A stretch of 64,000 nt of DNA from Macrostomum lignano (taxonomy: Eukaryota), in the NCBI GenBank assembly GCA_002269645.1, contig NIVC01000272.1, forward strand, positions 372,001 to 436,000, read 5' to 3'. The position numbers and the translations under genes were made by a program. Of this stretch, positions 10,164-57,736 are shown piece after piece; within the stretch, counting starts at the first letter, position 1; every line of letters starts with the position of its first letter. Under the pieces are notes generated by a model. The model was not told the origin of the DNA, ran no database searches, and worked only from the letters and a program-made list of their open reading frames with translations.

Positions 10164-10271
10164 TTGTTGCGTTTCAAGTTGCTATGGAATATCTGTTGAG
10201 TCGCCTCTTACGACAAGCACAGATAAGCTGTGGACTTATTCTTTCCCGAGTTCCACACGGGTGTGAGTGAG

Positions 10272-37657: not shown

Positions 37658-37679
37658 ATCTGCAATTTTAAGAGCGATC

Positions 37680-38012
37680 TAATTAGTCTACTTCCTCGTA
37701 CATATCGATTTTGGTTTAGTGCGACTGTCGGGGGAAGAAGTGTGCCGAGGCAGCTGGGGCAGTAAGTTATGCCGCCTGTACCTAGCCTTTGCAGGCAGGT
37801 GAAGCAGCACCAGTGACGGGACTGGCACAGCCTCACCTGGGGATTGTCCCCGCAAAGGCTACAAGCTATTAGCGGGTCGCGGCATAGGGGGCACGTAGCT
37901 ATTATTCCTGAGTCGACACACCTGAAGCAGGTTTTGTGCCCGTATTGGCACATTACCTGCTGTAAGGTGGCCGCCTCCAACACACAGGGCACTCTTCTTC
38001 TGTGTTTGCCAT
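37680..38012 (-). pseudogene. RING paralog A 5' half (cassette 3) fused by deletion to the last codons of a paralog C
   Basis: ATG 38012 (MANTEEECPV); QQVMCQYGHKTCFRC...CPSC; then the sequence matches the ...YDEVD* end of paralog C. Confidence 0.75.
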
Positions 38013-38544
38013 TGTGAATGAAGATTTAGTAGGACCGTTCGCTAAATTGTTATTTTAATATAAGTGCGCCTGCACTTGCTCCCCTCTCTGTCTAACCATC
38101 CACCTTATTGATCAGCGCCTCGGCCCCCCATGTACGCCAACCCCCTTCGTCCATCGCTTATCTTTTTCGATAAATGTACGTTCAACCCCCCTCTTCTGTG
38201 GTTCTGTTATCTACGCGAATCAATAAACTCGGCTAATAAGTTATTTAGGCTCGCGTGCGGGCTCTCTAGCTCCAGAACGCTCTCTCGTTAACTACAAACT
38301 TCTATTTAGCGTTCTCTACTTTATTTGCATGAAAAGTCACAACAGGACCTGCGCTGTGTATGTTGGCGAGACGTGGCCTATATATGTTATCGTAGACTAA
38401 TTGTAGTTTGCTCGGGAGTGTCGATGGTTATTGTTTGTGATAGGTGCGTAGAAACAATGTTTTTTGTGTGGCCATAATTGGTTGAAGGTAGGTGTTTACT
38501 ATTTATCATTATCTGAGTGATAGTAAATTGAGCTATGTTATTGT

Positions 38545-39147
38545 TTAATAACAAGAGGCAAAGTGGTCATTGAGCGTTGTGATGAAGTAATTATTGATGC
38601 TTGCCGTTAGTAGTGCGATGGGCCGAACTAGGTGTTGAACCGTTGCGTACTCCTGAGCGTTGGTCTCGTGCAGTAGGCTTAGGTAGATCTCCTCCGCAGG
38701 AATGGCATTTGTCATCATGGCGTAATGTCGGGCCCGTTGGAACAAAAAGGTTAGCTGTGGTTATCGGTCGTAGGGAATAGGCCACTCTCGGATGATGTGG
38801 GCAAGGTCAGTTGTCGTCATGTTGTTCAAGCTGTCTGTCGTTAGTGTGACTTTGTGTTCATTGTTGTCCGGAGTGTCGACCAGAATCGGTTGAGCGTAGG
38901 TGACACACTTTGTGATTTTGTGTCGCTGTGTTGACATTACGCAATCGTGGCAGACCCAGTGCTTGTTTTCACAGAGTTGTAGTTGTGGGACGGTGTTGTA
39001 CACTTGGCAGTGCGTTGGTGGTGCTCGGCACAAGGGATACTTGTCGATCATTTCTGTAGTGCAGCAGAGGAAGCACAGCCTGTGTCCGTTCTGGCAGTAG
39101 ACAAATGGTGTGATTTCTTCCTCGTAGCACACGTGACATGATTCCAT
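38545..39147 (-). pseudogene. RING paralog B (cassette 3), premature stop
   Basis: MESCHVCYEEEITPFVYCQNGHRLCFLC...IIREWPIPYDR* then FQRARHY...EEIYLSLL. Confidence 0.85.
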
Positions 39148-39179
39148 CTGGGGGATAAGGAAGGTACTGGTATACTTTA

Positions 39180-39737
39180 TTAATCTACTTCGTCGTACGT
39201 ATCGCCTTGCCAGGCTGTTAACTCACTGTACGTTACTAACATGGTTAAATCAGCATTTCGTTTAATAAGTATCGATAATATAGCGCAATGAAATGGGAGG
39301 CATGGTAATTCGCATGTTGATAAGTATCTTAAAAGACGTTGCTGAATACGTTGTAACGGGAAGAGTATTAGTTGGTGTCTATTATGATGTGCGTACATAA
39401 CGAGGTGCACATATGCCGAGCGAGAGTTTCTAGGAAATAGACAATCGTCTAGTCGACAAATAACGTCTATTGGAGCGAGTTAGTACGCAATGGTTTCAGC
39501 CAATTGAACCGTTTGTACCAGTTTTATACGTAGGAGTTGATCGCGCATTTGTACTAAGGAAAAAGGCATCGCATTCAGGGCACATAAGCAGTTTTCGAGC
39601 GGCTAGTTTCTTGGTACACTGCATGCATAGAAAATGTTCATTTTTACAGAACTTTTGGGTGCGCCATGATGTACAAATCATACATTGTCATAGGGCGCCA
39701 CGACATATGGGGCAGGCTTGCCAAAGTTGGATATGGT
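39180..39737 (-). pseudogene. RING paralog C (cassette 3), 5'-truncated by the neighbouring LTR
   Basis: Similar to 42624-43170; sequence switches to LTR at ...GGATATGGT|TGAAGAG. Confidence 0.85.
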
Positions 39738-40862
39738 TGAAGAGTTGATTCGGGAGGTGATCAGTCACCCGTAAACTCCCACTTCCAGACACTTAAGCCT
39801 GGGAACAAATTTAACGTGTGCACTTACTGTGGCGGGTTCTTCTTCTGTGTCGGGCAGGTTCTCCGAGCTTGTTCCTTGTTTCTTCTTTAATGCGCGCGTT
39901 TGTAGAGTTCGCTTCTTCCAATCTTCTTCTCCGGAGGAATCTTCTTGAAGTCTTCGAAGTCCAAAGTCGGCCGAGAGTGAGAGCAGAACAGTGAAGTCGA
40001 CGTCGAAATATCTCCTTGAGTGCGGGATTCAGTACGTTTCTCGAGTGCCAAATCAGTATCAACAGAGCGCCCTAATAAACTCGAATTCTAACGCGAGGTC
40101 CTCCAAAAGGGGCGTCATCTTTTAGATCTAACGGAATCGGAGTCGTGTGCTCCTATCTGTTAATCTAGGATAATCCAAATCAACAGTCAGTAATCCTCTA
40201 AGGGTATCGGAATCGGTCCGCAGATCCTATCCAATCCCTTAGGAAAATGGGAGGCCTCAAATAGTCTCAGTAAAGTCAACGGATCAGCAACGGCCGGCCG
40301 GCAATAAAATCGCTCTCAATTAATCAAAATAACGAAGACTTGAACAACACTTCACAATTGATACGCTTCTCTCCCAGAGATATAGCCTCGATTAGTTGCT
40401 CTAACTAACCACAAGATCTTTTGAGGCTGCTCCGAGTCTGAGGTTTCAGCTCGGATTTTACGTTTGTATTTATAGTCGAATTTTTTGTATATACTTAGTA
40501 GCGCGACTCATATTTCATCATATTTCATCAGATTTAATCTTATTTTATCATATTTCACCATAGTTGCAACATATTTCACCATAGTTGCAACATATTTCAC
40601 CATAGTTGCAACATATTTCACCATAGTTGCAACATATTTCACCATAGTTGCAACATATTTCACCATAGTTGCAACATATTTCACCATAGTTGCAACATAT
40701 TTCACCATAGTTGCAACTTGTCTCATGCTTCGTCGTACGTTGTATTCACGGTCTTAAAATAGAGTATGACAATTTTGCAATTTTTATAACATTCAAGTTT
40801 TTCGCTTTTTTATGTTACTACTTACAGTAGTTTACTTTGTATCGTATTTGGAGATCTCTACA
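39738..40862 (-). mobile_element. 3' LTR of the main RING-Gypsy element
   Basis: TGTAGAG...ACTCTTCA (TG...CA) directly after PPT 40863-40875; homologous to 6645-7620. Confidence 0.8.
40549..40717. repeat. 21-bp tandem repeat x8 inside the LTR U3
   Basis: CATATTTCACCATAGTTGCAA repeated; absent from the LTR at 6645-7620. Confidence 0.95.
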
Positions 40863-41161
40863 ATATCTCCTTTTTACGAAAAATTCGTCTCGAATTTGTT
40901 TTATAAGCTGAAGGGTTGAACTGGTGAATATTGTTTTATTTACATGGTTATTATAATAATTTTAAGCTGAGTATGTGAACAAGGAAGCAATTACATGCCA
41001 GATGCTAAGTAAGTTGGTGAAGACATAGTCATTGTCACTTATTGGGGAGAGTCAAAATATGAGTATACAAGATACATATGAGGGAGCAACACATACAAGC
41101 AAAACAGTTACGTAAGTAAATCAGTTAAAATAAGCAAGAGTACATGACAGTGTCACAATGT

Positions 41162-41768
41162 TTATTGAAAAATGTCCGTCGAAGTGCGCCGGATGTATCG
41201 TTGCGTTCGTGTCACCAAGATGGCGACTGGCCAGAACAGATGTTGTAGTGGGATGTAGTGGGAGCTATTCATCGTATTGGTTAGTTGGTTGTAGATGTCC
41301 TCCGCCGATCTAGGCGGTTCCGTAACCGCTTGTTGCCGGCCGAAAGCTAGCAGTCGCTGGCGTGCGTCGTGCAACTCGACCGGCAGCGGCCACTCTCAGA
41401 TATTGTCGGCGATTTCTCGTTCGGTGAATTGTTCCAGGTTATGCAGGCCCACCTCTGGCCAGATTTCGGTATTTTGGTTTAATTCTACTGTCGGGGGAAG
41501 GAGAGTGTCAAGGCAATTAGGGCAATAGGTGATACCACGTGCACCCAGCCTTTGCAGGCAGGTGAAGCAGCACCAGTGACGAGACTGGCACAGCTTCACC
41601 TGCGGATTGTCCCCGCAAAGGCTACACGCTATTAGGGGGGTCGCGACATAGTGGGCAAGTGGCTATCATGCCGGAGTCGACGCACCTGAAGCAGGTTTTG
41701 TGCCCGTATTGGCACATCACCTGCTGGTAGGTGGCCTCCAGGCAGACGGGGCATTCTACTTCAGGCAT
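41162..41768 (-). pseudogene. RING paralog A (cassette 4), frameshift/stop
   Basis: MPEVECPVCLEAT...CQYGHKTCFRC...CPLC; CQSRHWCCFTC...CPNC; helical tail. Confidence 0.85.
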
Positions 41769-41988
41769 TGTAAGGCAAGATATGGTAGCGTGGTAGGGTA
41801 GTTTCGTAGGGCGTGTGCTATGTATGTAGGCGAGTAGTGGCATATATATATATACTATATATGTAGACTAATTGTAGTGGACTCGGGTGTTTCGATGGTT
41901 ATTGTTTGTGATTGGTGCGTAGAAACAATGCTGTTTTCTATGTGGCCATAATTGGTGGAAGGTAGAGTCAATTGAGCTATGTGAATGT

Positions 41989-42590
41989 TTAGTAGCAAGA
42001 AGCAAAGTGGTCGTTGAGCGTTGTGATGAAGTAATTGTTGATACTTGCCGTTAGTAATGCTATGGGCCAAATGAGGTGTTGAACGGCTGTGTACTCCTGA
42101 GTGTTGGTCTCGTGAAGTAGGTTGAGGTAGATTTCCTCTGCAGGAAGGGCGTTTGTCGTCATGGCGTAATGTCGGGCCCGTTGAAACAAGAAGGTTAGCT
42201 GTGGCTGCCGGTTGTAGGGTATAGGCCACTCTCTGATGATCTGGGCAAGATCAGTTGTCCTTAAGTTGTTTAAGGTATCCGTCGTTAGCGTGATTATGTG
42301 GTCATTGTTGCCCGGGTGTCGATTAAGATTGGTTGAGCGCAGGTGACACACCTTGTAATGTTGTGTCACTGTATTGACATTACGCAGTCGTGGCATACTC
42401 AGTGCTTGTTTTCACAGAGTTGCCTTTGTGGGACTTCGTTGCACACTTGGCAGTTGGTAGGTGGTGCTCGGCACAGGGGGCACTTGTCCATCAGTTCTGT
42501 AGTGCAGCAGAGGAAACACAGCTTGTGTCCGTTCTGGCAGTAGACAAATGGTGTGATTTCTTCATCGTAGCACACGGGACATGTTTCCAT
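41989..42590 (-). pseudogene. RING paralog B (cassette 4), premature stop at ~42399
   Basis: METCPVCYDEEITPFVYCQNGHKLCFLC...CENKH*...IIREWP...EEIYLNLL. Confidence 0.85.
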
Positions 42591-42623
42591 CTGGGGAATA
42601 AGGGGAGGTACTGGTATACTTTA

Positions 42624-43292
42624 TTAATCGACTTTGTCGTACGTATCGCCTTGCCAGGCTATTAGCTCGCTATACTTTAATAACATCGTAAAATCGGCAT
42701 GCTTCTTAATAAGTAGGGGTATTATAGCACAGTGGAATGGAAGACTTGGCTGTTCGCATATTGATAGATACTGTAACAAACGTTGTTGAATTCGTTGTAA
42801 CGGGAAGAGTATTAGTCGGTGTCTATTATGATGTGCGTACATAACGAGGTGCACATATGCGGAGCGAGAGTTTCTAGGAAGGGGCCACTTGTCTAGTCGG
42901 CGAATAACGTCTATTGGAGCGAGTTGATGCACTATGGATGCAGATAACTGAACCGTTTGTACCGGTTGTATACGTAAAAGTTGGTCGCGCATTTTTACCA
43001 GAGGAAAAGCATCACATTCAGGGCACAGAAGCACTGATCGCTTAGCTAATTTCTTGATGCAACGCATGCATAGAAAATGTTCATTGGTACAGAACTTGTA
43101 GGTGCGCCATGATGTACAAATCATGCATTGGCGTAGAGCGCTTCGACACATGGGGCAATTTCGCCAGGGCTGGATATAATGAGCGTCACTGAGGCAAGTG
43201 CCGCATGTGCGGTGATTATTTACACATATACATGGCGGTTTCTTCGGAAGGTTGTCGTCTAGACAGACAGGGCATTCGAATTTTTTAGCCAT
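42624..43292 (-). CDS. tandem RING-RING protein, paralog C (cassette 4), intact 222 aa
   Basis: CPVC-x12-CVNNHRTCGTC-x12-CPMC then CMIC-x8-CTNEHFLCMRC-x11-CPEC, followed by LDKWP helical domain; starts ~106 bp after the pol stop. Confidence 0.9.
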   Translation of the reverse strand: MAKKFECPVCLDDNLPKKPPCICVNNHRTCGTCLSDAHYIQPWRNCPMCRSALRQCMICTSWRTYKFCTNEHFLCMRCIKKLAKRSVLLCPECDAFPLVKMRDQLLRIQPVQTVQLSASIVHQLAPIDVIRRLDKWPLPRNSRSAYVHLVMYAHHNRHRLILFPLQRIQQRLLQYLSICEQPSLPFHCAIIPLLIKKHADFTMLLKYSELIAWQGDTYDKVD

Positions 43293-43397
43293 TATTGTGT
43301 TTCAGTTGCTATAGATTTCTGTTGAGTCGCCTCTTACGACAAGCACAGTGAAGCTGTGGACTTATTCTTTCCCGAGTTCCACACGGGTGTTAGTAAT

Positions 43398-43712
43398 CTA
43401 GCGGGGTCTAAGGTTATAGGGGTGGTTAGTTATGGGAGTGTCCGTAGTTTGTGTTTCAGCGTGAGAAGTAGCAATATGTTTAGACGGTCTTTTTGTGTGA
43501 TTTTCATTGTTTAAATTTGGCAGAAATGTAGAGTCTGTGTTGATGCGTTTCAGTCGATGAATGTGCACGTAGAACTGCGGCTGATGTCGATCTTGGACAT
43601 TGGCCAGTTTGGCTGTGGTTGCCGAAGTCAGTGCTGATACACGAAATGGTCCTTTGTACTTTTGTGCGTGTTTGTGCGTCTGTTGTGCTGGATAGTGCAA
43701 ATAGACCATATC
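43398..43712 (-). pseudogene. pol: duplicated 3' end of Gypsy integrase
   Basis: Identical translation to the end of 51522-53768 (..HPYNLRPR*). Confidence 0.9.
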
Positions 43713-43721
43713 GGATCACAA

Positions 43722-45079
43722 AACTCGGGTCACAAAGGGGGAGCTCCCCCGTGGGGGCACAGGAGGGCGACCCGACGGCAGACATTGAGTCCTGTGCCCC
43801 CACCTCGCACGCTAGTTTTTTGAAAATTGGCCCGGGTCCCCATCAGCGTGGGCTCGGGCTTCAGAGTGCGGCTGTGAGCACCTGCGGCACTGATGGGCGA
43901 AGCGGCAGTGAGTTCTGTTGCAGCCGCTAAGACTGTTGAAGTCGAAACAGACAGGTGGCTGCGTTCGCTTTTTAGGCGCTGTTGCGTTTATCATTTTTGT
44001 TGGTGCCATCAAGTGTGTTGCCACCAGACCCAGGTCTGCGCTAACAGCGCTCCACCGCGTTCCATCATGCTGGAGAAGCCGACATTCGTCATCATATCTC
44101 ATGACTTTAGTGCGATCGAAGCCTAAATCTAGCAGGTCACCAATTCTAGCGTTATGTCGGAGATGATCGATCAACTCGGATGAATCGATTCTGCCATCAA
44201 CAATGCGCAGCAGTTTGCCATCACGCAGCATTTGCACCAGTAAGTTACAGCTACCGGAGATGAAATCGCCAAACGACAGTGACTCGGGACTGACGTGTCT
44301 CAACCTCTCTGGCTTTGCCGCTCCCACAACAGACTGGCTTCCTTGTCTCCGCTTACGCTCACTGATAAAATCAACGACTCTGTACACCGCCGGCGCCTGA
44401 GCATGCGAAGTTGCAGCCCCAGCCTGCCCGAGTATACACTCGCCAACCAAATCATGCCACTCACCGGGAGTCTGATCACGTTCTCTCGCAGCCGCCGTGC
44501 CACTGTGACGCGCTTCAGCGAGCTCGGCTTCGAGCTGAGCCTCTCTTTTTTTCAGGTCCAGCAGCCGAATGCGCAGTTCAGTCTCTCGCAGCTGATCCTC
44601 GAGACCGCCTCCCGTCGCCGCCCGACCCTCGGCCGAGGCGCCCACCGCCGGAAGCATCTCGTCCTCAGGTGGAGCCAGACTTAGCTCGGGTGCGCCCGCA
44701 TTCGTCGGTGATGTCTTGTCATCTTGAGCACGACGAGATGAGCTTCTGTCCTGCTCCAACGCCTGCCGCTCAAGCTCCTTGGCAATGCTGAGTTTTAGAG
44801 GACTTGTTAGCTCTTGCTTATTGCCATTAGTAGGCAGGCCGCGCTCACTAAGGGCTTCTCGTAGCGCTTTGTTAGTTGCGGGCAGTACAAGGCTATCTGC
44901 CATGATTCAGCAAAAAAAATTCAACCGCGAGCAACCCCGCGCAGCCACAAAGGTGGCGGCCTAAAAAGGCACGCGCACGCACCAACGCACCCACCACCCC
45001 ACCAGACAGCCAGCACCCAAACAGCCCCCCTGCACTAACAGCGGTTAGCCCTCGCGGGCTCGCGCAAACCGATGCATTA
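43722..45079 (-). mobile_element. partial duplicate of the Ngaro element (A repeat, gag, first codons of RT)
   Basis: Near-identical to 49985-51342 with a few substitutions. Confidence 0.9.
43812..44903 (-). CDS. gag: Ngaro/DIRS gag-like ORF1, copy 2
   Basis: 363 aa, one residue different from 50076-51167. Confidence 0.8.
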   Translation of the reverse strand: MADSLVLPATNKALREALSERGLPTNGNKQELTSPLKLSIAKELERQALEQDRSSSRRAQDDKTSPTNAGAPELSLAPPEDEMLPAVGASAEGRAATGGGLEDQLRETELRIRLLDLKKREAQLEAELAEARHSGTAAARERDQTPGEWHDLVGECILGQAGAATSHAQAPAVYRVVDFISERKRRQGSQSVVGAAKPERLRHVSPESLSFGDFISGSCNLLVQMLRDGKLLRIVDGRIDSSELIDHLRHNARIGDLLDLGFDRTKVMRYDDECRLLQHDGTRWSAVSADLGLVATHLMAPTKMINATAPKKRTQPPVCFDFNSLSGCNRTHCRFAHQCRRCSQPHSEARAHADGDPGQFSKN

Positions 45080-45258
45080 TTTACACATATACATGGCGGT
45101 TTCTTCGGAAGGTTGTCGTCTAGACAGACAGGGCATTCGAATTTTTTAGCCATTATTGTGTTTCAGTTGCTATAGATTTCTGTTGAGTCGCCTCTTACGA
45201 CAAGCACAGTGAAGCTGTGGACTTATTCTTTCCCGAGTTCCACACGGGTGTTAGTAAT

Positions 45259-47034
45259 CTAGCGGGGTCTAAGGTTATAGGGGTGGTTAGTTATGGGAGT
45301 GTCCGTAGTTTGTGTTTCAGCGTGAGAAGTAGCAATATGTTTAGACGGTCTTTTTGTGTGATTTTCATTGTTTAAATTTGGCAGAAATGTAGAGTCTGTG
45401 TTGATGCGTTTCAGTCGATGAATGTGCACGTAGAACTGCGGCTGATGTCGATCTTGGACATTGGCCAGTTTGGCTGTGGTTGCCGAAGTCAGTGCTGATA
45501 CACGAAATGGTCCTTTGTACTTTTGTGCGTGTTTGTGCGTCTGTTGTGCTGGATAGTGCAAATAGACCATATCTCCGACTTGTAGCGTAGATGCGTTGTT
45601 GGTTGTTTTCGATGTTACCGTCTGGTTGTCAAGATTGTGTTTGGCAATTTGCCAAGCCAGGTGTAGTCTTGTTGCGAAGGTCTGGAGTGTCGACGGTGTT
45701 TCCACGTACTGAGATGGTAGTAATTGTTTTGCGAGTAGGCTGGGCGGTTGAAAATCTCGAGCGAACATCAAGAAGAATGGCGTGTTATCCGTTGACCGAT
45801 GTCTCGCGCTGTTGTATGCCATTGTTACCGCTTTCAAGTAGATGATCCAATCTTCTGGTTGCTTGTAGACATAGTGGGTCAGCATTTCGTGTAGATTGCG
45901 GTGAAATCTTTCTACTAAGTTTGCTTTGGGGTTGTAGGTAGACGTATATATTTGTTGTATGTTAAGCAGTTTTGCAGCCTGTTGAAATAGTTGTGAGGTG
46001 AACTGCGTTCCGTTGTCGGTGGTTAGAGTCTTGGGTGTTCCATACATACAGACAATCTCGTTGTAGAACGCCATAGCTACTGTTTCGGCGGTAATGTTCG
46101 GCAGTGGAATTGCTACAGCGAATTTCGAGAAGACGTCGAGAGCGGTGAGGATGTATGTGTAGTTGATCGAGTGTTGTCGTGCGGCAGGTAGTGGTCCCGA
46201 AATGTCGAGGGAGACGGTATCCCATGTTGTTGTTTTCGGTACTGTTTGTAGTTGTGGCTTTTGGCGTCGTCCCGTTTTTGCGGCTGCGCATGAGTGGCAT
46301 TCGTAGCAATATTTGCTGATGTCTTTGGTCATTGTCGGCCAAAAGTAGAATTTTGTCACTCGTTCGATTGTCTTCTTAGCGGAAAGGTGTCCGGCTAATG
46401 GCATGTCGTGCAATTCTTGCAAGATAGCGGCTCGAAACAAATATGGCAGATAGATTCGCGGAATATTGTCACAGATCCAATAAAGGATTGATTCTTTGAA
46501 GATTAGGTTGTCGCTCTGTTTTTTAAGGAATTTTCTTTCTTGTTTTGTTAATTTGGCGTGCTTGGCGTCGTCGTTGTTTTGTGCGGCTTTGTAGAAGTTG
46601 TCGTCTTGCTGTGCCGTAATCAGTTCTTGCATTTTCGGAATCGGATGGATAGCGTTGACTTCGTAAGCTCTGGAGAGTGCGTCTGCTGCTTTGTTGAGTG
46701 GTCCCGGTTTGTAGGCTAGTTGGAAGTTGTAATCCTGAATTTTGAGTGTCATTCGGATGAGGCGGTTGTTAGTCTGTCCTTTCGTCATGACAATGTGTGT
46801 CAGCGGTGCATGGTCGGTTCTGAAAATTGTCGGTAATGGAGAACCGTAGATGTAGTAGTGAAACTGTCGTAGTGCGAACAGGATTCCAAGTAATTCTCTT
46901 TCTGTGGCGGACCATTTGGTTTCGTTTAGTCGTAGAGCTCGACTGATGTAGACGATGGGTTTTTCGACTTGTCTTTCCGTTTCTTGCAGTAGAACTGCGC
47001 CTAGTCCACTTCCTGAGGCGTCGGTTTCAATGAT
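45259..47034 (-). pseudogene. pol: duplicated Gypsy RNaseH-integrase segment, followed by a RING-C 5' stub (45080-45153)
   Basis: IETDASGSG, TDHAPL, NKAADALSR, HHCC finger, DDE motifs; near-identical to 51522-53297. Confidence 0.92.
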
Positions 47035-47371
47035 CAACCGCGAGCAACCCCGCGCAGCCACAAAGGTGGCGGCCTAAAAAGGCACGCGCACGCACCAACG
47101 CACCCACCACCCCACCAGACAGCCAGCACCCAAACAGCCCCCCTGCACTAACAGCGGTTAGCCCTCGCGGGCTCGCGCAAACCGATGCATTAGTGAAGGG
47201 GAGGCAAAGACAAAGACAAACCGAGTGCGGCGATGGAGAGGCAGCGAAAAGCCAGAGGATGCAACCCCAAGGCCAAACAAACAAATGAATGAACGAAGGA
47301 GAGAATTTACGAAACGGCGGAAATAAGGCTGGGGATAAGAACGGAAATAAAACTTTGAACACAAGCAAAAG

Positions 47372-48418
47372 TTATTCAAAGGCAACCTCGTTAAAAGCAC
47401 CAGCAAAACGCGAACCAGCCCGCACAGAATCAGCAGATGGAAGGTAGGCAGTCACAGCATCACTTCGCCAGTCACCGATGCACTTCACCTCTTGAACAGA
47501 TAGTCCGAGACGGTAGGCCCAGGTGGCACCACCTCTGCGCAGGCTGTGCGCTGAGAAAGAACGAGCGTCCTGCTCAGCCGTTGCTAGGCAGCGCTTGAGG
47601 AACCTGTCGAATCTTGAGGCAGACAGGACAACAGAGGATCCGCTCGCCAACTGGTAGGAGAACACAGGCTGCCTGCAGCCAAGCTTGCTGACACGGAGGT
47701 GACCCTCTAGCGCAGCCACTGGGCAAAGCGGATGTCCTTCTTTTAGCCTTGGAAGCAACACCCGGTGCAGCTTCGCGCCGAACTGATTCGTTTTGCCATA
47801 ACTGACAGAGAGCACAACCCCCTTCGGGTGGCGTTGAAAGGCTGAGACGGAAATCGGTGAAGCGGACTGCTGGCTGGGCAGGAGACTGGAGCGCCGAAAC
47901 ATCCCCCACCAAGCAATAAGCGTCACAAGCCAGCAGACTCTGTCAAGCGAACTGCTCGAGTTAAGCCGGTTTTTCACAGACAGCAGCATCGCAGGCGAGA
48001 TCGGCAGCTTCCGTCTTGGTCGCTGGCCCATCCTCCGTTTAGCGCCGCGAACGAGCAGTGAGACCAGGTGGTGTTTTGTTAGGTCCTCAGCACCACAGGC
48101 TTTGAACCAGCTGGACAGTGCACTGACATGGACACGCAGACTGTTGAACGATCTCAGGCGGCATTCGACTAGGTGAGCCAGGTAGTTGAGTAGCACCGAC
48201 CGGTCGGATCGAGCCGGGTTGGTCCCGTTCTCGTTGCAGAAGCTGTGCCAGGACCGGACGGCCGATGAGATCGCCCTGCGTGACTGCGGTGCGTATGCTG
48301 CGGCGAGGAGGCTGGAGGCGGCGGCGCCGAGGGTCGGCGTTGCAGGGAGGCGGCCTGTGAAAATAAAAAACGGGAGGCAAAAACAGAAAACGCGTGATCC
48401 GAAAACTCCACAGGGCAA
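47372..48418 (-). CDS. tyrosine recombinase (YR)
   Basis: GMFRRSSL, YGKTNQ, CPVAAL, SAHSLRRGGATWA, IGDWRSDAVTAY. Confidence 0.93.
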   Translation of the reverse strand: MPCGVFGSRVFCFCLPFFIFTGRLPATPTLGAAASSLLAAAYAPQSRRAISSAVRSWHSFCNENGTNPARSDRSVLLNYLAHLVECRLRSFNSLRVHVSALSSWFKACGAEDLTKHHLVSLLVRGAKRRMGQRPRRKLPISPAMLLSVKNRLNSSSSLDRVCWLVTLIAWWGMFRRSSLLPSQQSASPISVSAFQRHPKGVVLSVSYGKTNQFGAKLHRVLLPRLKEGHPLCPVAALEGHLRVSKLGCRQPVFSYQLASGSSVVLSASRFDRFLKRCLATAEQDARSFSAHSLRRGGATWAYRLGLSVQEVKCIGDWRSDAVTAYLPSADSVRAGSRFAGAFNEVAFE

Positions 48419-50067
48419 ACTGGTACAGACCCGTAAACACGGAAAATAAAATTAAGCAACTCATGACGCGAGTGCAGGCGGGACCCTGCATCAGCAAACA
48501 GCTGATAAGCACCAGGAACGTGAAAGACCTCAAAATCAACGTCAAAACGCAGACAGAGCAACGCCACAGACTGCAGCAACCACATCAGACGCGAGTCCTT
48601 GGAGACACCTCGCCTTAGAATCCAACACGCCGTCTCATTGTCGCAGTACACAGCAAGCCGACAACCAGCCAAGGATTGGCCCCATCTCAAAACAGCCAGC
48701 AATATAACCACAGCCTCCTTGTAATTGATGCAGTAATTCTGAAAAACACCATTTGCGTCGATCTGCCAGTCAATAAAGCACCAATCACGAATCCCATCAC
48801 CGTCACGGAGCACCGCCGCGGCGCCTGAAGACGACGAGTCAGTCTCTATGGCAACACAAGCCCTCGGCGAAGTCCACAGGCCAACACCGATGCGATGCTG
48901 CAAAGCCAACCGCCACCAGGAGAGGTGGTGCACCATGGAGGGACTAACAAGAACCCTGTCATGAGGCCGATGCAGCTTGTTAACAATGTCGATAAGAGGT
49001 CGGAGGAAAACTCTCCCGTGCCGAACAACTTGCGACGCCCAGTTTAACTTGCCGATCAACTTCTGCAAACACGACTTTGACAGCCTTTTCTTCGAAGAGC
49101 AGAGAGATAAAACATGCAACAAGTCTTGGACTTTTTCGGCAGGAAGAGACATCTGGCCTGCCACGCTATCAAATAAAATGCCCAGAAAGGTCATCCGCGT
49201 TGTCGGCGGAACACACTTGCTACGGTTAACGGTGAAGCCTAGCCGCTCGAGCAGATCGATGAGATGGTTGTAGAACTTCCAGCAGGACTCCAGATCTCCA
49301 CAAAAGGCGAAGTCATCCATGTAGGCCTCCATAGCGTAGAAACCATGCTTCAACATCATAAAACGCACAGCTTGGCTCAGCTCGTAAAAGCAGAAGACGG
49401 AAGCCGAAGCACCAAACGGGAGCCGCGTGTCGTACAGGTACACTGGCTGGCCCTCGCCTTGGAGCTGAATCTTCATGCCTGTGACCCGGTGGTCATCAGG
49501 GTGCACACCACATGAACGATATGCTTGCGACAGATCCACTTTGCACATGTACGCGCCGCTGTACAGCTTCGAGGCAAAGTTGCTGGCCGAAGTAAAACGC
49601 AACTTCCGTTTCGACTCAAAGAAATCATTCACAGAGGCGCCAGTTGGCAGGCTGCAGTCGTGAATAAGGCGGATGGAAGACGAATCCGCCTTAGGGATCG
49701 CACCAAGTGCACTAACGATGAGCGGCCGATTGCCTGCCTGGCAGCGCCTGTAGCGGTCCTGCTTGAGCTCCTGGCGCACCTGGGCCTCAACAGCTTGCTG
49801 GTGAATGGTAGCTGATCTGTGATTTGCCATCTCAGTGTGGTTCTTACAATCCATCACTTTATTAGTAATTCGAAAGCCATTCTTCACACCATCGAGCACG
49901 AACCTGACACGGTCCTCCGGCATCTCGGTCCCAGCCAGCTCTTCCCGCCAAACCGCAAACACAAGGTCGCTCGACAACTCAGTTGAACTCGGGTCACAAA
50001 GGGGGAGCTCCCCCGTGGGGGCACAGGAGGGCGACCCGACGGCAGACATTGAGTCCTGTGCCCCCAC
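48169..50067 (-). CDS. pol: DIRS/Ngaro reverse transcriptase-RNaseH
   Basis: RLIHDCS, KVDLSQAY, LPFGASAS, YMDDF, FLGI; RNaseH IETDSS, INYKEA, YCDN, ADAGSR; overlaps YR as is typical of this group. Confidence 0.93.
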   Translation of the reverse strand: MGAQDSMSAVGSPSCAPTGELPLCDPSSTELSSDLVFAVWREELAGTEMPEDRVRFVLDGVKNGFRITNKVMDCKNHTEMANHRSATIHQQAVEAQVRQELKQDRYRRCQAGNRPLIVSALGAIPKADSSSIRLIHDCSLPTGASVNDFFESKRKLRFTSASNFASKLYSGAYMCKVDLSQAYRSCGVHPDDHRVTGMKIQLQGEGQPVYLYDTRLPFGASASVFCFYELSQAVRFMMLKHGFYAMEAYMDDFAFCGDLESCWKFYNHLIDLLERLGFTVNRSKCVPPTTRMTFLGILFDSVAGQMSLPAEKVQDLLHVLSLCSSKKRLSKSCLQKLIGKLNWASQVVRHGRVFLRPLIDIVNKLHRPHDRVLVSPSMVHHLSWWRLALQHRIGVGLWTSPRACVAIETDSSSSGAAAVLRDGDGIRDWCFIDWQIDANGVFQNYCINYKEAVVILLAVLRWGQSLAGCRLAVYCDNETACWILRRGVSKDSRLMWLLQSVALLCLRFDVDFEVFHVPGAYQLFADAGSRLHSRHELLNFIFRVYGSVPVCPVEFSDHAFSVFASRFLFSQAASLQRRPSAPPPPASSPQHTHRSHAGRSHRPSGPGTASATRTGPTRLDPTGRCYSTTWLT

Positions 50068-50075
50068 CTCGCACG

Positions 50076-51167
50076 CTAGTTTTTTGAAAATTGGCCCGGG
50101 TCCCCATCAGCGTGGGCTCGGGCTTCAGAGTGCGGCTGTGAGCACCTGCGGCACTGATGGGCGAAGCGGCAGTGAGTTCTGTTGCAGCCGCTAAGACTGT
50201 TGAAGTCGAAACAGACAGGTGGCTGCGTTCGCTTTTTAGGCGCTGTTGCGTTTATCATTTTTGTTGGTGCCATCAAGTGTGTTGCCACCAGACCCAGGTC
50301 TGCGCTAACAGCGCTCCACCGCGTTCCATCATGCTGGAGAAGCCGACATTCGTCATCATATCTCATGACTTTAGTGCGATCGAAGCCTAAATCTAGCAGG
50401 TCACCAATTCTAGCGTTATGTCGGAGATGATCGATCAACTCGGATGAATCGATTCTGCCATCAACAATGCGCAGCAGTTTGCCATCACGCAGCATTTGCA
50501 CCAGTAAGTTACAGCTACCGGAGATGAAATCGCCAAACGACAGTGACTCGGGACTGACGTGTCTCAACCTCTCTGGCTTTGCCGCTCCCACAACAGACTG
50601 GCTTCCTTGTCTCCGCTTACGCTCACTGATAAAATCAACGACTCTGTACACCGCCGGCGCCTGAGCATGCGAAGTTGCAGCCCCAGCCTGCCCGAGTATA
50701 CACTCGCCAACCAAATCATGCCACTCACCGGGAGTCTGATCACGTTCTCTCGCAGCCGCCGTGCCACTGTGACGCGCTTCAGCGAGCTCGGCTTCGAGCT
50801 GAGCCTCTCTTTTTTTCAGGTCCAGCAGCCGAATGCGCAGTTCAGTCTCTCGCAGCTGATCCTCGAGACCGCCTCCCGTCGCCGCCCGACCCTCGGCCGA
50901 GGCGCCCACCGCCGGTAGCATCTCGTCCTCAGGTGGAGCCAGACTTAGCTCGGGTGCGCCCGCATTCGTCGGTGATGTCTTGTCATCTTGAGCACGACGA
51001 GATGAGCTTCTGTCCTGCTCCAACGCCTGCCGCTCAAGCTCCTTGGCAATGCTGAGTTTTAGACGACTTGTTAGCTCTTGCTTATTGCCATTAGTAGGCA
51101 GGCCGCGCTCACTAAGGGCTTCTCGTAGCGCTTTGTTAGTTGCGGGCAGTACAAGGCTATCTGCCAT
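50076..51167 (-). CDS. gag: Ngaro/DIRS gag-like ORF1 with N-terminal SAP-like motif and C-terminal CCCH/CCHC finger
   Basis: LREALSERGLPTNGNKQELTSRL; CFDFNSLSGCNRTHCRFAHQCRRCSQPH. Confidence 0.82.
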   Translation of the reverse strand: MADSLVLPATNKALREALSERGLPTNGNKQELTSRLKLSIAKELERQALEQDRSSSRRAQDDKTSPTNAGAPELSLAPPEDEMLPAVGASAEGRAATGGGLEDQLRETELRIRLLDLKKREAQLEAELAEARHSGTAAARERDQTPGEWHDLVGECILGQAGAATSHAQAPAVYRVVDFISERKRRQGSQSVVGAAKPERLRHVSPESLSFGDFISGSCNLLVQMLRDGKLLRIVDGRIDSSELIDHLRHNARIGDLLDLGFDRTKVMRYDDECRLLQHDGTRWSAVSADLGLVATHLMAPTKMINATAPKKRTQPPVCFDFNSLSGCNRTHCRFAHQCRRCSQPHSEARAHADGDPGQFSKN

Positions 51168-51342
51168 GATTCAGCAAAAAAATTCAACCGCGAGCAACCC
51201 CGCGCAGCCACAAAGGTGGCGGCCTAAAAAGGCACGCGCACGCACCAACGCACCCACCACCCCACCAGACAGCCAGCACCCAAACAGCCCCCCTGCACTA
51301 ACAGCGGTTAGCCCTCGCGGGCTCGCGCAAACCGATGCATTA

Positions 51343-51416
51343 TTTACACATATACATGGCGGTTTCTTCGGAAGGTTGTCGTCTAGACAGACAGGGCATT
51401 CGAATTTTTTAGCCAT
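51343..51416 (-). pseudogene. RING-C 5' stub interrupted by the Ngaro element
   Basis: MAKKFECPVCLDDNLPKKPPCICVNN then Ngaro A1. Confidence 0.85.
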
Positions 51417-51521
51417 TATTGTGTTTCAGTTGCTATAGATTTCTGTTGAGTCGCCTCTTACGACAAGCACAGTGAAGCTGTGGACTTATTCTTTCCCGAG
51501 TTCCACACGGGTGTTAGTAAT

Positions 51522-54500
51522 CTAGCGGGGTCTAAGGTTATAGGGGTGGTTAGTTATGGGAGTGTCCGTAGTTTGTGTTTCAGCGTGAGAAGTAGCAATA
51601 TGTTTAGACGGTCTTTTTGTGTGATTTTCATTGTTTAAATTTGGCAGAAATGTAGAGTCTGTGTTGATGCGTTTCAGTCGATGAATGTGCACGTAGAACT
51701 GCGGCTGATGTCGATCTTGGACATTGGCCAGTTTGGCTGTGGTTGCCGAAGTCAGTGCTGATACACGAAATGGTCCTTTGTACTTTTGTGCGTGTTTGTG
51801 CGTCTGTTGTGCTGGATAGTGCAAATAGACCATATCTCCGACTTGTAGCGTAGATGCGTTGTTGGTTGTTTTCGATGTTACCGTCTGGTTGTCAAGATTG
51901 TGTTTGGCAATTTGCCAAGCCAGGTGTAGTCTTGTTGCGAAGGTCTGGAGTGTCGACGGTGTTTCCACGTACTGAGATGGTAGTAATTGTTTTGCGAGTA
52001 GGCTGGGCGGTTGAAAATCTCGAGCGAACATCAAGAAGAATGGCGTGTTATCCGTTGACCGATGTCTCGCGCTGTTGTATGCCATTGTTACCGCTTTCAA
52101 GTAGATGATCCAATCTTCTGGTTGCTTGTAGACATAGTGGGTCAGCATTTCGTGTAGATTGCGGTGAAATCTTTCTACTAAGTTTGCTTTGGGGTTGTAG
52201 GTAGACGTATATATTTGTTGTATGTTAAGCAGTTTTGCAGCCTGTTGAAATAGTTGTGAGGTGAACTGCGTTCCGTTGTCGGTGGTTAGAGTCTTGGGCG
52301 TTCCATACATACAGACAATCTCGTTGTAGAACGCCATAGCTACTGTTTCGGCGGTAATGTTCGGCAGTGGAATTGCTACAGCGAATTTCGAGAAGACGTC
52401 GAGAGCGGTGAGGATGTATGTGTAGTTGATCGAGTGTTGTCGTGCGGCAGGTAGTGGTCCCGAAATGTCGAGGGAGACGGTATCCCATGTTGTTGTTTTC
52501 GGTACTGTTTGTAGTTGTGGCTTTTGGCGTCGTCCCGTTTTTGCGGCTGCGCATGAGTGGCATTCGTAGCAATATTTGCTGATGTCTTTGGTCATTGTCG
52601 GCCAAAAGTAGAATTTTGTCACTCGTTCGATTGTCTTCTTAGCGGAAAGGTGTCCGGCTAATGGCATGTCGTGCAATTCTTGCAAGATAGCGGCTCGAAA
52701 CAAATATGGCAGATAGATTCGCGGAATATTGTCACAGATCCAATAAAGGATTGATTCTTTGAAGATTAGGTTGTCGCTCTGTTTTTTAAGGAATTTTCTT
52801 TCTTGTTTTGTTAATTTGGCGTGCTTGGCGTCGTCGTTGTTTTGTGCGGCTTTGTAGAAGTTGTCGTCTTGCTGTGCCGTAATCAGTTCTTGCATTTTCG
52901 GAATCGGATGGATAGCGTTGACTTCGTAAGCTCTGGAGAGTGCGTCTGCTGCTTTGTTGAGTGGTCCCGGTTTGTAGGCTAGTTGGAAGTTGTAATCCTG
53001 AATTTTGAGTGTCATTCGGATGAGGCGGTTGTTAGTCTGTCCTTTCGTCATGACAATGTGTGTCAGCGGTGCATGGTCGGTTCTGAAAATTGTCGGTAAT
53101 GGAGAACCGTAGATGTAGTAGTGAAACTGTCGTAGTGCGAACAGGATTCCAAGTAATTCTCTTTCTGTGGCGGACCATTTGGTTTCGTTTAGTCGTAGAG
53201 CTCGACTGATGTAGACGATGGGTTTTTCGACTTGTCTTTCCGTTTCTTGCAGTAGAACTGCGCCTAGTCCACTTCCTGAGGTGTCGGTTTCAATGATAAA
53301 GGGTTTTTGGAAGTTTGGATGTTGCAGTAAGGCGTCGGTCGTCAGTTGCTGTTTGATCTTTTCGAAGCTTTCTTGTTGTTCGTCCTTCCAGTTTTCTTCT
53401 TTCCACTTTGGTTGTTTGAGCAGTTCGTATAGCGGTTTGGCAGTTTTGGCAAAGTTTGGCAGAAACTTTCGGAAATACTGTGCTAGTCCTAGAAAGGACT
53501 GCAATTTTGTTATAGAGGTTGGTCGTGGGAATTTCTTTACTTTCTCCACATTACTTGGATCTGGTGAGATTCCTTTTGCGGATACGTGGTGTCCCAAGTA
53601 TCGTACCGAGCTTCGGCAAAACTTGCACTTGGTGGGTTGTAGTTTGAGACTTTGTCGCCTGAGAAGGAATAATGCGAGTTCCATCATTTGAAGTAGTTGT
53701 TCGAAGTCTTCTCCGAAGGCAAGAATATCGTCTACATAGTGGAGTAGATTGGTACATCCAGCAAGCATGTAGGCTGTTAGTCAGCTCATTGTAGCAGGTG
53801 AGTTTGAAATTCCCATAGGACTTCTTTGGTAAGCGAAGACTTCTCCATTGTACGTCTTAAAGGCTGTGTATTGCTTAGACTCTTCTTCTAGTTCGATTTG
53901 CCAAAATCCATGTCGTAGATCAAAGACTGTGAAGAGTGTCGCTGTGTTGAGTCTCGCCATTAGTTCCGAAATCTTGGGTAGGCTTTGTTGATCTGTCGGG
54001 ATATACTTGTTTAGGACTCGAAAATCGCAGACAAGTCTTCTCTCGTTTGTGTCCTTCTTCTCGACAAGCAAGCATGGAGAGGAATAGGCTGAAACTGTCC
54101 TCTTGATGATACCGGCTTTGAGCATTTTCTCGATGATCTCGTCGAAGTGTTGTTGTAGATGTTTTGCAATCGGATACGGTTTGCACTGAATCGGTTCCTG
54201 GTGCGGCAGCAGTGTGATCTTCTGTTTGATGTCTTTGGCTCGTCCAATGTCGTAGTCGTGGTGGCAGAAAACATCGTTGTACTTCCATACAAGATCTTTA
54301 ACTTGGTTCTTTTGTTCTTCGGTGATCGGACTTTGTGACAGATCGATTTGTTCTAGGAATTGTTGCCTTGGCAATGTTGTCGATGTTGATTGAATAAGCA
54401 TCACTGACGCTTGTGTGCTGAGATGTCCGATGCAGGTTCCTGCGTAGATTCTCACTGGGTGCTTGTTAGGATTGACGATTTGTACCGGAATCGTTTTGTC

Positions 54501-54545
54501 GGCTGTGATTAGTACCAGTGCTGTGGGGATGAGGATTTCGTTGTT
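51522..54545 (-). pseudogene. pol: Ty3/Gypsy pol (RT-RNaseH-IN); protease missing; one in-frame TGA at 53781-53783
   Basis: IPVQIVNP...GTCIG linker, PCLLVEKK...RLVCDFRVLN, DLRHGFWQI, YVDD, FLGLAQYFRKF, IETD, HHCC, DDE, YNLRPR*. Confidence 0.95.
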
Positions 54546-56468
54546 CTATTAAACTTCAGTTGAAGATCCGACATTTCGTAGGTTTCATCAACAATGGCTT
54601 GTGATTTCGAGATGTTCTTGATGTCTCCTGTTGGCGAAATTTGATGTAGTAGATCGTTCACGTTGAAATAGTTGGCCGAATTGGTACATGGTCGTGGAAT
54701 GGCAGTTCCGACAATGATGTTGTGGACCGTATCCAAAAATCCTCGAATTCGCTTTCCATTGTAGAAGGCTTCGATCCGCGGTTTGTCGTAGCAAGTTGTT
54801 GACGTGTTTGATGACAAGATGTTAAAGTGATGGATCAGAGTACACTTGTAGATTAGCAAGTATCCATAAACCGGAACGGCGAGGAAATCTTCAATTCCTG
54901 TGATCTTCCTGAAGGTGGTCGTAGGGTTGACGTAGTAGTTCTGTCGCGTGTAGTTTAGACTGGTCTCGTGCATTCGACATGTCAGTTTGACCATGGAGCG
55001 ATGCAGATAGTTCAGTTGCTTGTGCAGTTTGTGTTCCATCGCGGCTAGTTTTGCTGCCAGAAGTCGTGCTGATACTAACGAAGGCTTATCCAGGTTTCGC
55101 TTTTGTCTTTCCAAGGTTTCTTCTCTTGGATAGGTACCATTTATCACCTTCAAAAATACATTCTTGTCCATGTCCTTCAGTGCAATTGGTATTTCTTGGT
55201 CAGATAGGATTAGTTGTTCATTGTTTTCCTTGCATTTCAGTTGTGTATAGCTTGGTTGCTTTGGAAAGGTAAGAGCTAGATCTCCAGAGTCGGCAAGGAA
55301 GGTGTTAGATAGCAGTTTTCTTTGAACAGTATGGTATTTCTGTAGTTTGCAGTCAATTTCAGTTTTGACTTCCCATGCGATGAAGTATTTGCGAGTTCGA
55401 CTCGGTTCTTTGTATCGAGAATCCGATCTGTACTCGATTTGGTATCGATAGTCATGGAAATAATTCGGAGCTAGCGGTAAGTTTTGAGCTTCCTCTTTGT
55501 TGTAGTTAGGAGTAGCACAATATCCTGAGCTGTAGTGGCATTGGTCAAGCGGTAGTTGCAAGGATTCCATGTTTTCGAAAGGATTGTGGTAGAACAAGAC
55601 GTTTAAAATCAGATAGCTGTTGTAGACAGTATACAGAGGCCATCGTGCTGCGTGGTAGTGCACATATCTTCCTTCGGCTACGTTGTTGGTGCGGAATAGT
55701 TGCGCTCCGCTTGCTGAAGTGTCGTGGAGCTTCAATTCACCGTCTTTGGAAAACAGGGTTTGGTTCCACTGCATGGAGGCTTTCTTCATGTGATACCTTC
55801 ATCGATGTTTGCCAATATCTGATTCGGTTCCATTGTACCAACCAAATCTTTTCGAGTTCGTCTTTGTCTCTAAAGCACAAAATTCCCATCTGTCGATGCT
55901 TCTTTGTATTCGCTTTGTAGATGTCGATTGTAAGCGGTAGCGGCTTTGTTTGATTCGTCTTAAAATAACTGCATTTGATTTCCGTAGGAATTTTGTAGAT
56001 GACAGGCTGGATGGTAGCGTCTGTAGGACAAATCATTGGTACTGAAGTTGAAGTTACCAGTGGTAGCAGGATGAGAAGGATCATCGCAAATAACCATTTC
56101 ATTAGAGGGTGTCTCTTCTTGCTCTTCTTCGGCATCGGCATACTTTCTTCTTGTTCTCCTTTCTTGTTGGAGTGACTTGTGATCGTGGTTTCGTCCAGTT
56201 CCTCGTAGTCGTTTTCTGGTTCTTCAGATGGAGTGATGTCTTGTGGACGGAAGAACCATTTTCTTGAGTGTGGTACTGGTGTTAGAGGTTCCTGATACGC
56301 TGGTGGGTGACACGCTGTAGGGTGTCTTCGAAAGGTACCCATGAATTCTGGTCGAGTCGGCGTAGAAGAAGTCTGTTGATGCAGTTCTCCGACATTCATC
56401 GTAACGTAGGTGTTATCTTCTGTTTGAGTGAATCGATTGCATGTGAAGTGGAACGGTTGGGTGTTCAC
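54509..56468 (-). pseudogene. env: envelope-like glycoprotein, class III (herpes gB/chuvirus-like) type; frameshift ~55790, C-terminus and TM missing
   Basis: Signal-like MKWLFAMILLILLPLVTS followed by VPMICP; CHYSSGYC; furin-like RQKR at 55097-55108; heptad-like helix then C...NPTTTFRKITGIEDFLAVPVYGYLLIYKC and CYDKP...GFLD...PC; several NxS/T sites. Confidence 0.72.
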
Positions 56469-56536
56469 AGCTTTGTTTGTCCGTTTCCGTTTTCAGCATT
56501 AAGAATTGTAGCAAGATTCTCGTATTCCGGTTCGGA

Positions 56537-57736
56537 TTATTGTACCGTTGGAGATGGTAACATGTAGTCGGTATCTTCAAAGAGAGTATCACGTACGTTG
56601 ATACTGAAATCTGGTGTTAATTCTTCTACCGAAAATTTTGGTTCGATAGCCTGTTGTTCACTGGCCTGTGGTTCAATGGCCTGTGTGTACTGTCTATGCA
56701 CCTGCGTTGGCTGCCTTGGTGGAGCGGGTCGGCGTGGGTTGTAAGGTACCATCGTATTGTTAGGGCGGTTATCCCGCCATGGTGGTGGTCGATTATTCAT
56801 CCGATTTCTGTTTGGTGGATATTGTTGGTTTGGATAGCGTGACCAGTTTTCTCGTCTGTTTCCACCGGAATAATTTCGTGGTTGATTCTGGCGCAAGTTT
56901 TGGCGGCAATCTCTGTAGTAATGACCTACTCTTCCACAATTGTGACAAGTAACGTTTCGAGGGTTGCTTTGCTGCGGGCGCATTGCAATTGCTGCGGCTT
57001 GGTGTTGTTGCATAAGTTTGCTTAATTGTTCTGCTAATTGTGCGGTGTCACTAGTGCGGTTAGCTAGAAGAGGTGCGCTTGCCTCCCACTGCATTCCACA
57101 GCGGAGTAACTGTTCTTCTGTCTCAATTGTTTCTCGCAGGAGTCTATCTCGCAAGGCAGGTTGAGCGTTGTTAATGACATTAAGAATTAGACTTTGCTTT
57201 TGATCTGCAAGCCGTTGTCTTTCTCTAGCAGCTGCTTCTGCTGGTCCAAGGGGTTGAGCTGCTGCTGCTGGTTGCGGTTGCTGTTGATGCAAGGCTTTGA
57301 TGATTTGTCGAATATCATCGACAAAGGTGAGGAATGATTCCGTGGGTGTCATTTTCCGGTTATGTAATTTATGTAACAACACCGATCGATTGGTTCCGCA
57401 TCGTGCGAACTGTGTTCGAAGTTGGGTAATCATGGCATGGTAATCTCGTTGTGTAACTGCATCTAATTTTCCATAAATTTCTCGGGCTGTGCCTTGTAGC
57501 AATGGAGGGAGGAGTAGCGCCTTTTCTGGATTTTGTAATCCATATTCCCTTGATACCAAATCAAAGTGGTCAATGAAGGTCGCAAAATCTTTGTCCATAG
57601 TGTAAGATACGACTGTCTCTTCTTTGTCTCTCTTCTTGTCTATGACCTCTCTTCTCTCTCTCTCTCTACCTCTCTCTTTATCGATTTTCCTCCCCAGCGT
57701 TATCGCCTTTAAATATTTTGACGGCAATTCGGGCAA
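56537..57736 (-). CDS. gag: Ty3/Gypsy gag with CCHC zinc knuckle
   Basis: FIDHFDLVSREYG...LLQGTAREIY capsid-like segment, RKMTPTESFLTF, CHNCGRVGHYYRDC; the 5' end is affected by a GA-rich tract. Confidence 0.9.
   Translation of the reverse strand: MPELPSKYLKAITLGRKIDKERGRERERREVIDKKRDKEETVVSYTMDKDFATFIDHFDLVSREYGLQNPEKALLLPPLLQGTAREIYGKLDAVTQRDYHAMITQLRTQFARCGTNRSVLLHKLHNRKMTPTESFLTFVDDIRQIIKALHQQQPQPAAAAQPLGPAEAAARERQRLADQKQSLILNVINNAQPALRDRLLRETIETEEQLLRCGMQWEASAPLLANRTSDTAQLAEQLSKLMQQHQAAAIAMRPQQSNPRNVTCHNCGRVGHYYRDCRQNLRQNQPRNYSGGNRRENWSRYPNQQYPPNRNRMNNRPPPWRDNRPNNTMVPYNPRRPAPPRQPTQVHRQYTQAIEPQASEQQAIEPKFSVEELTPDFSINVRDTLFEDTDYMLPSPTVQ

Follow-up and report, generated by a model that had tools for sequence, protein, structure and literature searches.

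The 64,000-nucleotide window analysed here (Macrostomum lignano, contig NIVC01000272.1, positions 372,001 to 436,000) contains on its minus strand a damaged copy of a Ty3/Gypsy retrotransposon in which gag, env and pol are one polyprotein and not three genes, followed by a cassette of genes for double-RING proteins. Comparison with other copies in the same genome shows that the family (Metaviridae) is autonomous, recently transposing and 10.6–12.5 kb long, and that the window copy is dead. To judge from substitution ratios and tree topology, the cassette is under purifying selection and is swapped between close copies. The association of a double-RING cassette with RNA signals appears to be new with respect to the literature compared here, Repbase, Dfam and GyDB lying outside that comparison. 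A preliminary description of the window had recognized the minus-strand order of gag, an env-like gene, pol ending at 51522, a spacer, three intronless double-RING genes, a polypurine tract (PPT) and a TG...CA long terminal repeat (LTR), all of which are present; it had overlooked the single polyprotein, a pseudoknot in the spacer and splice signals.

A search of the genome with env listed 100 matches, 10 of which lie in single open frames of 2,480–2,538 amino acids. Ten copies, selected for high identity or long frames and not a random sample, were fetched. All ten have paired LTRs that are 99.0–100% identical, a TGGTGA tRNA primer site and a PPT, and in all ten gag, env, pol and RING genes lie in this order between the LTRs, with spans of 10,577–12,511 nt and unrelated flanks; target-site duplications are 4 bp in nine copies and 5 bp in one. 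This recurrence upholds the proposal of a stable envelope-bearing Ty3/Gypsy lineage and contradicts the possibility, raised with it, that gag and env are never linked to this pol. Within the frame the order is gag, a linker, a signal peptide, a putative class III-like env, a transmembrane segment, protease (PR), reverse transcriptase (RT), RNase H and integrase (IN), and in the two copies scanned zf-CCHC, aspartyl protease and RT matches fall in one frame with env in between. The best solved-structure match to the RT of a sister copy is Ty3 (E 8e-45), with foamy virus next (5e-33). The separate gag, env and pol genes of the preliminary description are one open frame elsewhere, their separation in the window being the product of stops and frameshifts.

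Three subfamilies are distinguished: A1 (the window copy and that on contig C391) has three RING genes, A2 has two, and B has two, or one truncated. Env of the window copy is 63% identical to that of subfamily B, the short copies of which (C4296, C102 and C3) have LTRs of 855–864 nt and span 10,577–10,614 nt. A six-copy non-autonomous derivative (L034 on C301, with C352, C525, C1192, C2828 and C2869) has an in-frame fusion of gag and part of env with the integrase end, and both RING frames are open in the copy examined. Self-nests and tandem dimers of the family occur on C87, C1130, C2121, C272, C669 and C2447, and several single copies are located inside simple repeats. The A1 LTR (window 39738–40500), used as a genome-wide query, gave 41 matches of 81–100% identity, mostly on contigs that have no listed env match; these are probably for the most part solo LTRs.

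Linkage of the cassette to env was counted at 57 loci with long env matches; excluded were short rows, one additional row and the six-copy derivative. RING-1, the first gene after pol, lies 1.5–9 kb downstream of env on the same strand at 52 of them, and three of the five misses are at contig ends. In 20 further stretches the RING matches adjoin a pol end, an LTR or another fragment of the element, and no intron-bearing host donor gene was seen in them. Ratios of nonsynonymous to synonymous substitution (dN/dS) between RING genes are 0.12–0.28 in nine unsaturated pairs, with both domains constrained (four deeper pairs are saturated), and 0.18 for RING-C of the window against C391; the values for gag and pol are 0.05–0.11 for comparison. 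Linkage and selection together bear out the claim that the RING genes are the element's own. In a protein tree RING-1 stands apart from the rest and the second-position genes do not form one group; the copies on C583 and C717 share 96% identity in RNase H-integrase but only 34% in their second RING genes.

An AlphaFold model of the RING protein (pLDDT 90.8) comprises two RINGs and a four-helix domain. Across 18 aligned proteins the C3HC4 zinc ligands are invariant or nearly so, and a CPxCR arginine, which we take to have an E2-activating role, is invariant in the first RING only. The best fold matches are single RING E3 domains that cover one RING only, and 16 of the 18 proteins match Sina_RING below its cut-off. 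A search among 1.84 billion representatives returned whole-architecture homologues only in P0001–P0004, with partial ones in P0005 and P0035; a RING profile search returned three proteins and added P0155, and a word-index search with one RING protein gave no matches. RING-1 of subfamily B begins MGNALS or MGNAQS, presumably an N-myristoylation-like motif, and that of A1 and A2 has no MG start. The RING proteins may function as E3 ubiquitin ligases. The helical domain was also considered as a new fold, which matches of generic kind do not show.

Env matches PF24664 with E 2e-4 in the window and about 1e-5 in other copies (23.5–24.2 bits against a curated cut-off of 27), and a homologous env of a sister family exceeds that cut-off with 31.3 bits, suggesting a class III (gB-like) fold. 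In each of four copies from three subfamilies, a hydropathy scan finds a signal-like segment, a furin-like site and, ahead of the protease, an anchor. Env dN/dS is 0.06–0.09 at all depths measured, and the linker is weakly constrained (0.54, one pair). The stretch from anchor to protease includes PTAP in four of five copies and, among two sister families, PSAP in one.

The spacer between pol and RING-1 contains a 4-bp stem with an A-rich 9-nt loop; the loop is paired to a stretch some 10 nt further downstream, and two hairpins follow. In 18 distinct sequences, the same from which the structure was drawn, 96.5% of cells are paired and two pseudoknot pairs are changed on both sides; the covariation score is reached by none of 500 shuffles, and slid partners pair at 30–44%. 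The genome has 101 occurrences of the pattern and the reversed control none; it is absent from viral contigs, and Rfam gave no meaningful match to the spacer. Readthrough of the pol stop into RING-1 was rejected on account of a further in-frame stop within 7–11 codons in A1 and B, and the HDV-like and pistol ribozyme topologies do not fit the spacer. RING-2 is marked by a different signal: a CAG lies within 2 nt of the first ATG in all 23 distinct RING-2-type starts (roughly nine lineages) and in none of the 21 RING-1/3-type starts, against a background of 26/637. All three subfamilies have a splice donor 90–100 nt before the LTR end, that of B having been read by eye.

Transcription was followed in contigs only, from four runs of four studies, none of which is recorded as RNA. 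Of the 30 bins into which a B copy was divided, 28–30 are covered by run contigs, which also cross the gag-env and anchor-protease junctions in colinear fashion; six joints were listed for the four runs, none of them an env-skipping or RING splice. Contigs of X2 and X11, from two studies, exit the LTR exactly at the donor. The X11 tail has three genomic matches, and the one inspected is an exon after a canonical acceptor (TTGCAG); one X2 loose-end consensus has no match in the genome. Because contigs leave the LTR exactly there and one is joined to a genomic exon, the LTR donor is functional and was observed spliced to a host exon. At L075:1501–1545 one run shows an LTR donor joined to a non-element exon, an LTR-driven chimeric transcript. 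The evidence for splicing does not include the gene model P0001, in which LTR sequence is connected to RING-2. Operons and spliced-leader trans-splicing are known from the host (PMC8629364), and the latter may offer an alternative route to RING-2 RNA.

These results can be assembled into a model in which the polyprotein would thread the endoplasmic reticulum membrane twice, Gag staying cytosolic, the internal signal peptide importing the env ectodomain and the anchor stopping transfer. PR-RT-IN would then be a cytosolic tail of Env until released by the protease, and Pol packaging would thereby be tied to Env; the topology suggests a single precursor that is processed by signal peptidase, furin and the protease of the element. 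The PTAP and PPxY motifs, the latter of which we presume to carry its usual meaning, would recruit the budding machinery. The RING genes would lie beyond the reach of scanning from a capped genomic RNA, and it is therefore proposed that each has its own route. RING-1 might be reached through the pseudoknot, by a nuclease block or internal initiation, and RING-2 from a subgenomic RNA that is spliced from the LTR donor or trans-spliced; RING-3 has neither pseudoknot nor acceptor signal. In the protein, the first RING would bind E2, and the second RING with the four-helix domain would bind substrate. The fold, the invariant CPxCR arginine and the turnover of the genes point to host defence as the target, the likeliest job being degradation of host silencing or restriction factors, which would help long-term survival and be dispensable for copying within the genome.

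The overall reading, a selected Ty3/Gypsy polyprotein element carrying RING E3 ligases aimed at host defence, is judged to be probable, with considerable room for doubt. Several results weigh against it. All RING Pfam matches of the aligned members fall under the curated cut-offs, no RING fold match reaches E 0.001, and the helical domain has no clear structural relative among its generic helix matches (best Z 6.1). The identity of env is that of sub-threshold Pfam matches, with a single-sequence model at pLDDT 31 and no match of the env profile to PDB sequences. The covariation of the pseudoknot amounts to only three sequence states among related copies, and nested folding energy is no better than that of shuffles (z -0.3 to -0.5). 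A joint from LTR donor to RING-2 acceptor is absent among the six listed, beside which stand 33 loose ends, and the donor could instead act in the control of poly(A) sites. Of 150 RING-1 rows, 41 are truncated, in two forms that belong to young B copies, and no RING gene is present in those sister env families that were examined, which speaks against an essential role. A stronger version, in which a complex and still transcribed invertebrate endogenous retrovirus lineage duplicates and swaps E3 ligases that destroy host anti-transposon factors, uses a separate RNA trick for each, with a new class of pseudoknot for RING-1 and splicing from the LTR or a spliced leader for RING-2, and delivers Pol to particles as the cytosolic tail of Env, is held to be rather doubtful.

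Of the alternatives, the one closest to the data would make the RING proteins zinc-binding membrane adaptors in assembly or budding, like arenavirus Z, and not counter-defence ligases. The MG start of subfamily B is kept while the following residues diverge, the truncated young copies retain it together with the first RING, and Lassa Z is among the fold neighbours, the Z cluster standing at 0.84 in the Atlas list. However, the MG start is missing from A1 and A2, the resemblance to Z is that of any RING and falls below significance, the polyprotein already contains late-domain-like motifs, sister env families manage without RING genes, and gene duplication and swapping fit a conflict better than a structural role; such adaptors are considered unlikely. 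That the RING genes are captured host genes, passively carried and without a role for the element, would agree with the loss of most of the cassette from the most numerous young form. This is very improbable given dN/dS of 0.12–0.28 between element copies, RING matches that adjoin element parts in the 20 stretches and no intron-bearing donor there, about six full-architecture homologues among the 1.84 billion representatives, and the conserved expression signals that precede the genes.

A further question is whether env is still used. The six-copy derivative has neither the env anchor nor most of pol, as might be expected if env were a functional relic and the element now moved only inside cells. 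The low env dN/dS at all depths, however, and the retention of signal peptide, furin-like site and anchor in three subfamilies and in sister families at 24–28% identity make this quite improbable; a single frame selects against stops in env, yet leaves the amino-acid constraint unexplained. The element may be infectious, as the term retrovirus-like implies. Finally, insertions are densely nested in the window, tandem duplications occur and the env-pol junction arose by deletion, so that the series could by itself be taken for unrelated insertions nested by chance or for a chimera of the assembly; the same order in ten of ten paired-LTR copies at unrelated flanks, and the linkage of RING-1 to env at 52 of 57 loci, reduce this to a negligible chance.

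The window copy (Table 1) is a decayed, 5'-truncated element that retains its own PPT and 3' LTR. Aligned with the closest paired-LTR copy (C391), it is homologous only as far as about 57619; the start proposed at 57736 therefore lies in flanking DNA, and the 5' LTR, primer site, leader and first gag codons are missing. Stops at 56537 and 53781 and frameshifts near 56500 and 55780 interrupt the polyprotein region, and the env-pol junction near 54545 is the product of a 1.07-kb deletion. The three-RING layout stands insofar as all three genes are present, but only RING-C is intact, and other copies carry two or one truncated. The Ngaro parts found in the window are gag-SAP, RT and tyrosine recombinase. 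Setting this insertion aside, as had been done, was justified because contig C4009 holds a second version of the window insertion with the same parts in the same nest and with neither Ngaro nor the duplications. By self-alignment, 43722–47037 equals 49986–53300 at 99.8% and 43215–43712 is present in three copies, 100% identical. Within 43398–51342 the Ngaro element has RING-C at one border and an RNase H position at the opposite one, and a short templated insert lies at one duplication junction, which suggests later break repair rather than clean insertion. The end of the 3' LTR abuts the RING-C gene of an older family copy. The recurrence of the pol-RING-LTR part at 6645–11964 was also seen, with pol 92.7% identical to that of the window copy; the third RING gene of that fragment (7919–8512) belongs to a lineage distinct from RING-A.

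Table 1. Features of the window copy and of neighbouring or related elements; positions refer to the window unless a locus is named.
Feature	Position	Strand	Evidence or remark
gag part of polyprotein gene, one CCHC knuckle	56540..57619	-	Pfam zf-CCHC; 5'-truncated, then in-frame stop
gag-env linker, acidic, proline-rich, PPxY motif	56103..56492	-	
env: internal signal peptide, putative class III-like ectodomain, furin-like site; anchor deleted; frameshift near 55780	54546..56102	-	PF24664, hydrophobic segments
1.07-kb deletion junction; env anchor, PTAP-bearing tail and protease removed	54539..54547	-	window against C391
pol: RT, RNase H, integrase in Ty3/Gypsy order; in-frame stop 53781-53783	51522..54545	-	Pfam
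Secondary Ngaro (tyrosine-recombinase) retrotransposon at codon 29 of a RING-C copy; foreign to the element	47034..51342	-	Pfam SAP, RVT_1, Phage_integrase
Local duplications: pol 3' end, spacer, RING-C start, Ngaro 5' part	43398..47037	-	self-alignment 99.8-100%
pol-RING spacer, H-type pseudoknot and two hairpins	43319..43406; also 45180-45267, 51443-51530, 10193-10280	-	
RING-C (RING-1), intact 222-aa double-RING protein	42624..43292	-	
RING-B (RING-2), pyrimidine-rich CAG acceptor directly 5' of ATG (42590); two in-frame stops	41989..42593	-	
RING-A (RING-3), frameshift and stop	41162..41768	-	open version on C4009
Polypurine tract	40866..40875	-	conserved in 10/10 copies
3' LTR (TG...CA): 21-bp tandem expansion, TATA box, donor GTAAGT starting 39827	39738..40862	-	
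Older nested RING-cassette fragments, same family	35008..39737	-	
Second diverged 3' fragment: integrase, pseudoknot, three RING genes, LTR	6645..11964	-	
Tandem array, 34-bp unit x104	58834-62368		
Tandem array, TCTG x96	57879-58262		
Tandem array, 30-bp unit x20	31089-31676		
Antisense open reading frames of sister families	L058:2540-2791; L060:1807-2058; L062:9055-9312; L064:2554-2820; L068:8220-8567; L070:8781-9047		

At least three further families with the order gag-env-PR-RT-RNase H-IN were seen (L057–L070, on C270, C247, C1189, C172, C1884, C3269 and C759), some as single frames of 2,458–2,866 amino acids, with RT about 40% and env 24–28% identical. The stretches fetched from these sister families gave no match to the double-RING gene or the pseudoknot pattern. 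After pol they have antisense open reading frames of 84–116 amino acids that encode a single membrane segment, a run of cysteines and a basic tail, and for which no Pfam match reaches cut-off; these recall the FAST/sORF2 fusogens, although sORF2 genes are sense-strand and myristoylated (PMC11952523). Elsewhere in the window, 12103–27951 is Polinton/Maverick-like: inverted repeats of over 99% identity (12103–13443/26609–27951 and 14729–16468/24865–26603) enclose a protein-primed DNA polymerase B (19418–21976) and a dUTPase (22997–23707).

The GAG-ENV-POL order is already known, because elements of this order with an HSV/gB-type env are published from Nematoda, Bryozoa and Platyhelminthes (PMC13524379); the layout had been thought undescribed, and an annotated family of the same organization thus exists. 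The errantiviruses of that work share gene order, Ty3/Gypsy pol and probably env type with the present family. One of them, Platyhelminthes_Rhabditophora_Mlig_errantivirus_2, has an LTR of 864 nt, the primer site reverse complement GCGAGATCACCA, a span of 10,592 nt and 16 copies (PMC13524379). Its LTR length, primer site and span agree with those of the short B copies, a match by features alone, and subfamily B has very probably been catalogued there already. The window copy differs from it in subfamily and in having three RING genes. The terms RING, ubiquitin, accessory, pseudoknot, polyprotein and splic- do not occur in the main text of PMC13524379; neither RING, ubiquitin nor zinc finger occurs in the available portion of PMC5408684, and in the main text and supplement 1 of PMC12801592, as far as accessible, RING does not occur and env is not discussed. 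The literature search, subscription papers lying outside it, listed no report of RING genes or nuclease-resistant RNAs in LTR elements.

Other elements with genes beyond pol differ in kind. The nematode endogenous retroviruses of Sacco et al. (2022) reportedly have a continuous gag-env-pro-pol frame and extra 3' open reading frames (a helicase or a small hypothetical protein). Nematode elements of this kind are restricted to nematodes, whereas the present family is found in a flatworm, near-identical proteins being labelled Macrostomum lignano, and its 3' genes encode RING proteins. Non-canonical nematode endogenous retroviruses have a flipped env-pol order, and these elements do not form one clade (PMC13524379). 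Ty3/Gypsy elements of bdelloid rotifers have an enzyme-like open reading frame after pol (PMC5408684), but there a single frame (DEDDy exonuclease or GDSL esterase) replaces env, whereas the present family has env together with up to three accessory genes. Class 3 exoribonuclease-resistant RNAs consist of a compact stem-loop, the loop of which is paired to a 3' segment, just after the coding region (PMC12397905). The spacer has the pseudoknot between apical loop and 3' segment in common with them; unlike them, it has a 4-bp stem and an A-rich loop, and has no stacked P1-P2, L2B T-loop or Rfam match. It is a candidate new RNA structure, as the family itself is a testable case of one polyprotein with the envelope between Gag and Pol.

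A RING fold in a viral accessory protein is shared with the viral RING E3 ligases (herpesvirus ICP0 and RING proteins of large DNA viruses) and with arenavirus Z, but matches to these cover one RING only and are not significant, and the combination of double RING and four-helix domain is unmatched outside about six proteins. Accessory genes by which ubiquitin is hijacked characterize large DNA viruses and the complex retroviruses of vertebrates, and none were found reported for Ty3/Gypsy elements. E3-like genes that are under selection and rapidly exchanged would lead to the host factors by which retroelements are restricted in stem cells and the germ line. If the stronger version described above is correct, the family would provide the first retrotransposon-encoded ubiquitin-ligase counter-defence found, in a genetically tractable animal.

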